Shown piece by piece: positions 39,428 through 42,057 of a stretch of 46,946 nucleotides of DNA. Below the pieces are notes generated by a model that had not been told where the DNA came from, ran no database searches, and saw only the letters and a list, made by a program, of their open reading frames with translations. The position numbers and the translations under genes are program-made. The DNA comes from an uncultured Burkholderiaceae bacterium (GTDB lineage Bacteria > Pseudomonadota > Gammaproteobacteria > Burkholderiales > Burkholderiaceae_F): NCBI GenBank assembly GCA_964652055.1, contig CAZZAD010000002.1:1-46946 (forward strand), written 5' to 3'. The first letter of the stretch is position 1. Each line of letters opens with the position of its first letter.

Positions 39428-40288
39428 TTAAACGTACTGCGCGATCAGATAGCCAAATCGCCTCAAGAACCTCCAACCCAAAGCCAACACAACCAACGAT
39501 CCCACAGCTATCAATGCATTGTCGACAAACTGTGCAAAGCCAAACGTGTAGCTCAGCAGTGAAGCATGCGCAGCGGGAATAATGTAGGCGAAGGGGTTTA
39601 GCGCAAAAATGGGTTGGGCCCAATCAGGAATCCGACCAAAACTATATAAACCCGGGGACAAGTACCACCATAACCAAACAAAGTGACCAATAAACTTACC
39701 AACGTCTTTAAATAGCGTGCCGAGAATGGCCAACCAAACGGCCAACGCCAACGTAAAGCAAAACATACACAAGCCCACGAATAAGCCCGCAAGCCAAGAC
39801 ACGTGTGGTGTGTAGCCGGCCACCAACAGAAAAAACAGCAGGACACAAAATCGGATTGCAAATAAAACCAATTCCTGGGCCGAAAATTCGAGGAAAGCAA
39901 TATTCAACCCGAAACCCTGGTCAATGTACTGATGTCCTTTAGTGGTTAAAAAAGAAGGCGCACTCACGGTCAGCATGGCATGGCTGCGCCAGTAAATGAT
40001 CGCAACCAGGAAAAAGGCAAATGTTGAATCTGCTCCACGCATCCCAAACACCACCGTCAGCAAAAAGTAGTAGGCGCCGGCCTGCAATGCGGGTTCAAGT
40101 AACAACCACAAATGCCCCAGACTGAGACCAAAAACCTGCTGTTTAAGCTCAAGCCGAATCAAGTGCAACGCGCGGGCGATATCTCGGGCGCGTTGACTGG
40201 CGCGACCACGAAATCCAGCTTCACGAAAAACTTCGCCCGCTGGCGTAATCACCAAGTTATAACGTTCATTGCCTACGCGAGGCAGCAT
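39428..40288 (-). CDS. wzm: ABC-2 type polysaccharide export permease (Wzm/KpsM-like), 286 aa
   Basis: About six hydrophobic helices, with a typical N-terminal cytoplasmic segment ending in LELKQQVFGLSLGHLWLLLEP. ATG 40288 shares 1 nt with the wzt stop. Confidence 0.75.
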   Translation of the reverse strand: MLPRVGNERYNLVITPAGEVFREAGFRGRASQRARDIARALHLIRLELKQQVFGLSLGHLWLLLEPALQAGAYYFLLTVVFGMRGADSTFAFFLVAIIYWRSHAMLTVSAPSFLTTKGHQYIDQGFGLNIAFLEFSAQELVLFAIRFCVLLFFLLVAGYTPHVSWLAGLFVGLCMFCFTLALAVWLAILGTLFKDVGKFIGHFVWLWWYLSPGLYSFGRIPDWAQPIFALNPFAYIIPAAHASLLSYTFGFAQFVDNALIAVGSLVVLALGWRFLRRFGYLIAQYV

Positions 40289-42057
40289 CACAAGCTCTCC
40301 TTGTACATTTCTGTCGCAATGGTCGGGTCACCGTAGTAAACCGGGCGACCGCGATCAAGTAAGAGACACTTCGTACAGCGCGACAGCACAAAGTCGAATG
40401 TATGCTGCACCACAAGCACCAATTTAGCGCGAGCGATGAAATCGTCCAGCCGCTTCATAGCCTTGCGTTGGAAACCCATGTCACCCGCGCTGAGCAGTTC
40501 ATCGAGAAGCAGAATATCGCGCGGAATTGCCGTCGCCAATGCAAAAACAAGGCGTGCGCGCATACCGTCAGAGTAGTAGCGGAAAGGCCGATCAATATGC
40601 TCCTTGAGCTCTGCGAACTCAATGATTTCATCCATCAGCTCCCGCAGCTCATCCGGAAGAAATCCCATGTACAAACCTGTCTTGAGAACATTCTCCCGAC
40701 CGGTTAGATCACCCTGCATACCTGCGCCGGGACGCAACAAAATCGGACGCCCGCTTACTGATATGCATCCCTTCAACAAAGGCATCGCGGCGACGAGCGT
40801 TTTAAGAAGCGTCGACTTTCCCGCACCGTTTTTTCCAATGATGCCCACGATGTCACCCGCATACGCGCGGAAGTTAATGTCATCGAGCAACGTGGCCATA
40901 GGCGCATGGCGCCCAATGAGTCGCCCCAGTGATGCATGCAACGAGGGGTTCGACGAAATTCTCACTGTTGCGTTCTGCACCTTTAGAACTATCGGCGGCT
41001 CAAGATCAACCAGTTCAGCCAAGGCATTACTTTGCACATCGACCGGCAAGCGCTCGATGAGTTGGTCTGTAATGTGGTCGCGATAACCCTGCCGCTGACT
41101 TAAGTTGGCGGCAAGCACAACGTCGTAGGTATGTTTTGACAGCGGGGCCTCAACACCCGAGTACACATGCAAACAGCGGCTGATTGCGGCCAAGTCGGCT
41201 CGTTGGGCATGCCCGAGTAGCAACCACTCCAGCCATTGCGCTACATCTGTATCACGCAAAAACAGGGGTAGTCCGTTCTTGGCTACAACAAACAACGGAA
41301 CATCCGCACGGCTTGGCATAGGTGTCGTACCAATGAAGTCCAACGTCACACCTGTTGGCGACGGCGTCTGCGCCTGGCACCAATACACTGGGATACCATT
41401 TAATAGAACAATGTCCCGCCCCATGTGGCGACCTACTGCGACATGATTGAACGCATTGACGCTCAACAACGAAACCTCCACGCAGCGACCAACGACAACA
41501 GAGGCCGGTCGCAAGCGCAGCATGACTTCCTCGTCATCGTTGCCGTGAAGCCAGCGAAGGGCGGCAAATACTTCGCCTACACCATCAAAATTTGGCTTGA
41601 TCAGATAGTGCGCGAACAGCGACTCTTGTGGCCCGCCAGAGAAGTCATAACGCAACTGGGAGCGCTCGCCCGCACCGACACATACACTCAGCCCATTGAC
41701 TGATTCTTCAAAGTCTTTGTGTGAATCAAGGGATACCAACTTATCTTTTGCTCGCTCTCTTTCAGAAAGATTGGACGCCATAGACCAGGAAAATTCTTTG
41801 CCCTCGGAAAGACAAAGTGCAATTCGCGTGACAGTCTCTTCGAGATTTTTTTCACAGTTCAGTGCCACGACTTCCTTCTGCAACTGTGCCACGCCCCGCA
41901 TCGCAGGCAAAACCTCGAGCTTTGATGCACTTTCCGCCAACCGACCATGGCTTAGCGCATCAACAACGCTCAATGCCATCTCCCCTTCCAGAGTAACGCC
42001 CCTGGAACAAGCATTCATGGCAGGCTGGACGGCCATTTTCTCAATATTCTTTCGCAT
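40288..42057 (-). CDS. wzt: ABC polysaccharide export ATPase (Wzt-like) with a ~350-aa N-terminal extension of unknown function, 589 aa
   Basis: The ATPase motifs all lie in the C-terminal third: Walker A GKNGAGKST (aa 408-416), signature-like YSDGMRARL (495-503) and Walker B ILLLDE (515-520). Residues 1-350 carry no motif I recognise. Confidence 0.75.
   Translation of the reverse strand: MRKNIEKMAVQPAMNACSRGVTLEGEMALSVVDALSHGRLAESASKLEVLPAMRGVAQLQKEVVALNCEKNLEETVTRIALCLSEGKEFSWSMASNLSERERAKDKLVSLDSHKDFEESVNGLSVCVGAGERSQLRYDFSGGPQESLFAHYLIKPNFDGVGEVFAALRWLHGNDDEEVMLRLRPASVVVGRCVEVSLLSVNAFNHVAVGRHMGRDIVLLNGIPVYWCQAQTPSPTGVTLDFIGTTPMPSRADVPLFVVAKNGLPLFLRDTDVAQWLEWLLLGHAQRADLAAISRCLHVYSGVEAPLSKHTYDVVLAANLSQRQGYRDHITDQLIERLPVDVQSNALAELVDLEPPIVLKVQNATVRISSNPSLHASLGRLIGRHAPMATLLDDINFRAYAGDIVGIIGKNGAGKSTLLKTLVAAMPLLKGCISVSGRPILLRPGAGMQGDLTGRENVLKTGLYMGFLPDELRELMDEIIEFAELKEHIDRPFRYYSDGMRARLVFALATAIPRDILLLDELLSAGDMGFQRKAMKRLDDFIARAKLVLVVQHTFDFVLSRCTKCLLLDRGRPVYYGDPTIATEMYKESL

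Follow-up and report, generated by a model that had tools for sequence, protein, structure and literature searches.

We analysed a 46,946-nt stretch of DNA from an uncultured Burkholderiaceae bacterium (contig CAZZAD010000002.1, positions 1 to 46,946; hereafter the window), with a focus on a gene encoding an exporter ATPase of the Wzt class in which the motor domain is preceded by a large accessory domain. Coordinates are those of the window, and features lie on the minus strand unless stated otherwise. The gene, wzt, occupies positions 40288..42057, a complete open reading frame (ORF) of 589 aa. Its product consists of an N-terminal accessory domain (the N-domain; residues 1-355, 40993..42057), delimited by its homologues and by an AlphaFold2 (AF2) model and belonging to no Pfam family, and of a C-terminal Wzt/TagH-type ATP-binding cassette (ABC) ATPase domain, or nucleotide-binding domain (NBD; residues 356-589, 40291..40992, with the stop codon at 40288-40290). 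The NBD carries a Walker A motif (GKNGAGKST, residues 408-416, 40810..40836), an ABC signature (YSDGMRARL, residues 495-503, 40549..40575), a Walker B motif (ILLLDE, residues 515-520, 40498..40515) and an H-loop histidine, H552, in the motif QHT, all of them invariant across the family described below. A first-pass annotation of this DNA had reported a single uninterrupted frame of 589 codons with the first three motifs at these residues; the frame is indeed uninterrupted, and alignment numbering reproduced the positions of the motifs.

Pfam ABC_tran matches residues 391-521 (E 2e-16), and the TagH and galactan Wzt/RfbE models of NCBIfam cover residues 383-587 at E values of 6e-43 to 4e-40, with scores far below their equivalog cut-offs (147.2 against 538 and 137.7 against 320 bits for TagH; 138.2 against 400 bits for galactan Wzt/RfbE). 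The 13 best distinct PDB sequences for the NBD (E 1e-39 to 3e-27) are those of TarH/TagH (1e-39 to 7e-37), Aquifex Wzt (8e-34) and mycobacterial Wzt/RfbE (1e-33), together with the 8tsi/8tsh chain, which is 234 aa long and carries only the label 'ABC transporter ATP-binding protein'; the next ABC class begins at 3e-15. By sequence comparison, the protein is a member of the Wzt/TagH/KpsT class (COG1134) and not an equivalog of any named transporter. It ends 181 residues past Walker A and therefore has no C-terminal extension, and a Pfam search of the protein returned no Wzt_C domain (PF14524). Because this C-terminal Wzt_C, the defining element, was tested for and is absent, the protein does not have the architecture of the Wzt proteins that bear a carbohydrate-binding domain (CBD).

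The partner of the ATPase is encoded by the adjacent wzm gene (39428..40288), an ABC-2 permease of 286 aa (PF01061). The ATG of wzm overlaps the wzt stop codon (TGATG), and an AAGGAG Shine-Dalgarno sequence precedes it inside the last wzt codons, which points to coupled translation of the two genes. An ABC-2 permease gene adjoins wzt in each of the seven related loci examined. We also noticed that the AAGGAG (40288-40310, minus strand) falls within the codons for Y-K-E-S-L, a peptide conserved at the C-terminus of Wzt in the family, and part of this conservation may reflect the ribosome-binding site of wzm.

At the level of sequence, the domain order is reversed relative to characterised systems, as the first-pass annotation had proposed. 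In all solved TagH/TarH/Wzt/KpsT-like chains the segment that matches the NBD starts at residue ~22-41, and Walker A lies at residue 40-100 in 109 of the 120 best NBD relatives outside the family. Many of the NBD relatives of ~400 aa bear PF14524 at the C-terminus. Indeed, the carbohydrate-binding module (CBM) or CBD of characterised exporters is fused to the C-terminus of the NBD (PMC9445017, PMC11231755), which agrees with the earlier statement that the extra domain of known Wzt proteins is C-terminal. We found no N-terminally extended Wzt in the literature; the one published survey of how CBMs are arranged in these transporters (Mann, Kimber and Whitfield, 2019) lies outside our coverage, and absolute novelty is therefore not proven.

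The arrangement is shared by a whole family. An exhaustive HMMER search of 1.84 billion representative proteins with a profile of the N-domain (E ≤ 0.001, clusters at 50% identity) gave 14 clusters, 13 of them of 545-588 aa and the last a 185-aa fragment. When residues 1-353 were compared with 5.8 billion clustered proteins, four relatives of 573-588 aa were obtained, all with ABC_tran; a word-indexed protein search with the N-domain profile yielded 4 proteins, and a metagenome scan with a 5-sequence alignment yielded 5 loci. A scan of 185,579 GTDB representative genomes with N-domain patterns detected no relative at that sensitivity, and the members come only from metagenome-assembled genomes (MAGs) and metagenome assemblies. 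The family is small, unnamed and undescribed, with about 14 clusters. Its domain architecture does not vary: the N-domain was met only in front of an NBD, it is conserved in every homologue found, and each of the 17 full-length sequences has its Walker A at residue 364-408 and terminates 181-187 residues after it.

These homologues bear directly on the question of whether the long reading frame is real. A fusion created by an assembly or sequencing error, or a translation start near residue 350 that would leave an NBD of standard size, could in principle account for it; the Shine-Dalgarno sequence at the annotated wzt ATG is weak, and the NBD by itself would make a normal Wzt. Against such an artefact, the 17 full-length homologues are independent, come from different metagenomes and show the same architecture in one continuous frame, and no homologue split into two genes was found among them. 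Moreover, the N-terminal region is kept at the protein level and folds with a predicted local distance difference test (pLDDT) score of ~90 in AF2. The junction between the two domains contains neither a Met nor a conserved start, the nearest Met being M388, inside the NBD beyond its first strand, and no promoter-like site was seen inside the gene. We consider an artefact extremely improbable: the first 355 residues are a real, selected domain and not the product of a mis-called start. Homologues encoded as two genes, or an N-terminal region kept in no homologue, had been named in the first-pass annotation as outcomes that would overturn its interpretation, and neither was observed. The exact start of wzt is uncertain by up to ~26 codons, with in-frame ATGs at codons 1, 8, 14 and 27 and conservation starting near residue 28; the N-domain finding is unaffected by this uncertainty.

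Four relatives seemed at first sight to be intermediates with a short extension (P0009, P0011, P0014 and P0020, with ~60-110 apparent extra residues and Walker A at residues 121-164 as against about 60 in typical relatives). They were set aside, none of them being solid evidence of a split gene. P0009 is encoded on a contig of 1,422 bp, is by eye near-identical with the matching part of P0132, and is probably a contig-end fragment of a full-length family member. P0014, encoded at locus L085 (1-1495), is the closest of the NBD relatives whose N-terminus seems short. The DNA preceding its called start matches the beta-sandwich of the N-domain weakly but in colinear order (E ~1e-3) in two other frames, first G-S-R-T-E-L-R and then F-A-I-Y-C-D-G-V; this locus may perhaps hold a frameshifted or mis-assembled full-length family gene at a contig end.

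The first-pass annotation had recognised no motif in residues 1-350, and our searches agree with it. Residues 1-355 gave no credible match in Pfam, NCBIfam or the PDB sequences, whether single sequences or profiles were used; the sole PDB sequence hit was a de novo designed protein (E 0.81). None of the 17 members has any Pfam match in the N-domain, GH16 and PL7 included, even at E ≤ 1. The earlier annotation had suggested structure prediction together with a search for carbohydrate-binding folds. The AF2 model of the N-domain, built from the 17-sequence alignment, has a mean pLDDT of 89.9 and a predicted template modelling score of 0.88. Residues 1-20 are predicted to be disordered. They are followed by an N-terminal segment of four short helices (residues 23-83, 41809..41991, by DSSP of the model), by a beta-sandwich core (residues 87-259, 41281..41799) and by a C-terminal segment of five helices (residues 269-350, 41008..41253), just after which an invariant proline, P354, stands directly before the NBD. 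The possible coiled coil previously suspected at residues ~55-120 is not supported, as no long coiled coil is predicted there: in the model this stretch belongs to a compact domain, to which it contributes short helices (51-67, 72-83 and 97-106) and, at 87-92, the first strand.

When the N-domain model was compared with the PDB by Foldseek, 294 matches were found at E ≤ 0.001, and the best 50 of them all have a probability of 1.00. These best 50 are concanavalin-A-like (ConA-like) jelly rolls at E 1e-6 to 2e-5, including the Hc domains of botulinum neurotoxins, NTNH, the lectin domains of trypanosomal sialidases and the sialidase BT_1020. Target-normalised template modelling (TM) scores were 0.54-0.61 for GH16 glucanases and Crh5 and about 0.5 for PL7 alginate lyases. 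A full-length AF2 model made from 5 sequences (pLDDT 80-92 in the N-domain) also matches the sialic-acid-binding domain of the Vibrio cholerae sialidase (2w68), CBM66, galectin-14 and the L-type lectins ERGIC-53 and Emp46p, and the TM scores of CBM66 and the L-type lectins are similar to the GH16 and PL7 values. The sandwich of residues 87-259 is thus confidently predicted as a ConA-like lectin/glucanase fold, at a sequence identity to its structural matches of 8-15% only. In the full-length model the pLDDT of the NBD is below 50, probably because the five NBDs are too alike to carry a covariation signal; the model is therefore silent on the packing of the N-domain against the NBD.

Is this domain simply the known CBD moved to the other end of the protein? 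Taken as a candidate homologue of the Wzt CBD, the N-domain was compared with 12 Wzt_C domains by hhalign, and the candidate was rejected at a probability of 0.1%. Solved Wzt structures that include the CBD are not among the best 50 Foldseek matches of the N-domain. The N-domain, with neither profile similarity to Wzt_C nor a Wzt among these matches, is thus not the known CBD in a new position.

The residues conserved in the N-domain cluster in one part of it. R132, R168, D240 and P354 are invariant family-wide, and H150, E176, E177, R181, R183, G221 and G236 are nearly invariant; all except P354 lie in the region of the sandwich strands. The acidic residues E176/E177 and D240, together with structural neighbours such as GH16 glucanases and PL7 alginate lyases at target-normalised TM scores of 0.5-0.6, would fit a catalytic domain that modifies or trims the glycan in a GH16/PL7-like cleft, or else a regulatory one, a small-molecule sensor gating the ATPase. 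In addition, the conserved G-E-R-x-Q-L-R strand of the N-domain resembles the R-x-E-L-R motif of PL7 lyases. However, the GH16 strand motif E-x-D-x-x-E was not found in the 17-sequence alignment, and E176 and E177, being adjacent, must face opposite sides of the strand, which counts against catalysis of the GH16 type. The same alignment of the N-domain contains no invariant His or Tyr, which PL7 catalysis would require, and beta-elimination chemistry would not be readily transferable to the ketosidic linkages of nonulosonic acids. Since these motifs are lacking, and since no member matches GH16, PL7 or any other Pfam family in this region, the GH16/PL7 enzyme reading was rejected, and we regard a catalytic or regulatory N-domain as improbable.

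The two domains also differ in their degree of conservation. Mean pairwise identity across the family is 23.5% for the N-domain and 60% for the NBD. In the syntenic loci, identity to the window is 39-49% for the N-domain and 80-87% for the NBD of Wzt, 70-77% for Wzm, 62-90% for the precursor enzymes and 41-51% for the putative glycosyltransferase encoded upstream of wzt; the N-domain and this glycosyltransferase are the two least conserved products of the syntenic subfamily. A conserved motor joined to a fast-evolving appendage is the pattern expected of a specificity module.

The genes around wzt give an idea of the substrate. The 46.9-kb window is a large glycan island with a WecA-type GT4 initiating enzyme, a legionaminic-type pathway (aminotransferase, NeuC-like epimerase, NeuB, PglD-like acetyltransferase and a CBS-NTP transferase, or CMP-transferase) and genes for acetamidino-forming amidotransferases (WbuX/WbuZ/HisH). 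The cluster is predicted to produce an acetamidino-nonulosonic-acid polymer of the legionaminic type. The loci of the close subfamily share one gene order: WbuX, WbuZ, HisH, polysialyltransferase-like protein, Wzt, Wzm, proteins of 549, 422 and 529 aa, methyltransferase, NeuB/SAF and APH kinase. The protein encoded directly upstream of wzt (397 aa, 42159..43352) is polysialyltransferase-like by a sub-threshold match to PF07388 (22.7 bits, cut-off 23.3) and is a candidate nonulosonic-acid (legionaminic-acid) transferase or polymerase. Apart from this match, the neighbours of 549, 422, 529 and 397 aa have no PDB or Pfam assignment. At the end of the operon, a methyltransferase, a NeuB/SAF synthase and an APH-family kinase (32249..35083), syntenic in the close subfamily, may form a module that modifies the chain or terminates it with a cap. 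The pair of kinase and methyltransferase is reminiscent of WbdD, which terminates the chain in E. coli O9a; no chain-terminating enzyme equipped with a coiled-coil ruler was identified in the cluster.

The 549-aa protein (37753..39402), which has no assigned family, is a paralogue of the product of 35119-36708 (minus strand). These two proteins of ~530-550 aa are 29% identical (E 5e-26) and share a C-terminal region, 'HP ... SST..WA..CGIP.N.D.Y.Y'. In the locus of a distant family member (L086), where the N-domain is only ~18% identical and the precursor genes differ, the Wzm-Wzt pair is flanked by two homologues of the 549/529-aa paralogues (118-1581 and 7291-9042), so that these proteins accompany the transporter family even there. 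Our guess is that the ~550-aa paralogues are an undescribed family of glycosyltransferases or polymerases for nonulosonic-acid polymers. Several further features of the island were recorded. It holds two nonulosonic-acid pathways, at 10105-22056 (minus strand) and 26953-32209 (plus strand), one pseudaminic-like and one legionaminic-like, the pseudaminic-like one comprising PseB/PseC-type enzymes, a GNAT, a formyltransferase, a PIG-L deacetylase, NeuB/SAF and a CMP-transferase; three NeuB homologues are present in the window. The PGI of the window is at most 61% identical to that of any species-representative genome, the best matches being Burkholderiaceae/Burkholderiales MAGs. The G+C content is 0.49-0.56 over positions 39000-46946 as against 0.58-0.65 across most of the contig, and the block of transporter and amidotransferase genes may have been acquired horizontally.

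From the structural model, a role in recognition or scaffolding is plausible, and we propose that the N-domain is a substrate- or cap-recognition module, a functional analogue of the C-terminal Wzt CBD with an independent origin. We give this reading, drawn from the fold, the conserved residues and the gene context, a probability of about one half. The protein contains no C-terminal CBD that could otherwise supply specificity. In characterised systems, chains are terminated by methylation and (methyl)-phosphorylation, and the cap is recognised by the Wzt CBD (PMC9445017). Building on the reading frame with its motifs, the permease partner, the unvarying domain order, the predicted fold and the gene context, which are established here, we infer the binding of a ligand, its identity and the coupling of binding to export. 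In this scheme, a Wzm/Wzt-class exporter would move a lipid-linked polysaccharide rich in 5-acetamidino nonulosonic acid (legionaminic type) across the inner membrane. The sandwich would bind the finished polymer, either by a cap at its non-reducing end or by the acidic chain itself, through the conserved Arg, His and acidic residues that cluster on its strands. Binding would concentrate the substrate at the transporter and limit export to the cognate glycan, after which the C-terminal NBD would hydrolyse ATP in several rounds to power passage through Wzm.

Several observations weigh against a recognition module. The ConA-like fold is shared by enzymes and by domains that have no known sugar ligand, such as the N-terminal subdomain of botulinum Hc, and the fold alone is therefore no proof of a lectin function. 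Some of the conserved charged residues may be structural salt bridges, and R227, an Arg in 13 of the 17 members, is a Cys in this protein. The methyltransferase/kinase trio is missing from the distant locus L086. Finally, exporters without a CBM exist, and in Klebsiella O2a export is coupled to synthesis and not to the recognition of a cap (PMC11231755); recognition is therefore not obligatory. This documented coupling of chain extension to export leads to another view of the N-domain, as a protein scaffold that docks the polymerising glycosyltransferases (the polysialyltransferase-like protein, the ~550-aa proteins, or both), so that synthesis and export would be obligatorily coupled and no glycan bound. 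About half of the N-domain is helical (residues 23-83 and 269-350), a homologue of the 549-aa protein adjoins Wzm-Wzt even where the N-domain is only distantly related, and the N-domain has diverged about as fast as the putative glycosyltransferase encoded upstream of wzt, as interacting partners would. The residues that are invariant family-wide, however, are charged and located on the sandwich strands and not on the helices, and the fold class is dominated by carbohydrate-binding and carbohydrate-active proteins. We regard a scaffold as rather unlikely, though a better candidate than a catalytic or regulatory domain.

To our knowledge, a C-terminal Wzt CBD reading the chain-terminating cap is the only understood route by which an exporter selects its substrate in ABC-dependent glycan assembly. 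If the N-domain is a recognition module, an unrelated module of lectin fold would do this work at the opposite end of the ATPase, and substrate selection would have arisen at least twice. A second geometry would then also be available for studying how recognition is coupled to ATP hydrolysis. We speculate further that the protein is the first example of another answer to substrate selection, one that evolved independently. In it, an N-terminal ConA-like lectin domain for a nonulosonic-acid (legionaminic-type) polymer or its cap would load the substrate at a site on the NBD other than that used by the CBD dimer, and recognition would be coupled to ATP hydrolysis by a different route; this wider proposal is tentative, and we hold it with less confidence than recognition itself. 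The family may, in addition, provide a novel module that binds legionaminic- or sialic-acid-like sugars and could be used as a probe. It also flags an uncharacterised set of genes (those of the ~550-aa paralogues and of the polysialyltransferase-like protein) with which uncultured Pseudomonadota would make nonulosonic-acid polymers.

Among known systems, the CBD-dependent Wzt proteins (E. coli O9a, Raoultella terrigena/Klebsiella O12, Aquifex aeolicus; PF14524) have an NBD of the same class and a Wzm ABC-2 permease as partner. As in this protein, a single extra beta-sandwich domain is fused to the motor; that of the present family is far more variable than the NBD, as a serotype-specific recognition module should be, and its cluster encodes candidate chain-modifying enzymes. 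Here, however, the extra domain is N-terminal, measures 355 aa as against ~150 aa, has helical flanks and is predicted as a ConA-like jelly roll. The Wzt CBD dimerises by exchange of its C-terminal strand (PMC9445017), which cannot occur in the same way in this protein. The best-scoring relatives of the NBD are found in TagH/TarH, the ATPase of wall-teichoic-acid exporters (TarH 6jbh, E 1e-39; NCBIfam TagH, E 6e-43 and 4e-40). The scores are nevertheless far under the equivalog cut-offs, and the present gene comes from a Pseudomonadota MAG, in a cluster for nonulosonic acids and not for polyol phosphates. Extended TagH proteins, such as that of B. subtilis, carry the additional part at the C-terminus.

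KpsT and the CBM-less Wzt proteins (E. coli group 2 capsules, Klebsiella O1/O2, mycobacterial Wzt/RfbE) belong to the same ATPase class and have, as here, an NBD without a C-terminal domain. As with KpsMT, which exports polysialic acid, the substrate here may be an acidic polymer. These proteins consist of the NBD only (~220-265 aa), whereas the present one has 355 additional N-terminal residues, and no KpsC/S/E/D genes were seen in the window. In its predicted sugar chemistry, the cluster resembles the O-antigen system of Legionella pneumophila serogroup 1 (polylegionaminic acid, Wzm/Wzt lpg0772/0773), with which it shares a legionaminic pathway and acetamidino-forming genes. The window differs in coming from an uncultured member of the Pseudomonadota, with a G+C content of 50-64% and a PGI nearest to those of Burkholderiaceae MAGs (61%). 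Serogroup 1 uses an ABC-transporter route with initiation of the WecA type (PMC3766260); an ABC-transporter route and a WecA-type initiating enzyme are likewise found in the window.

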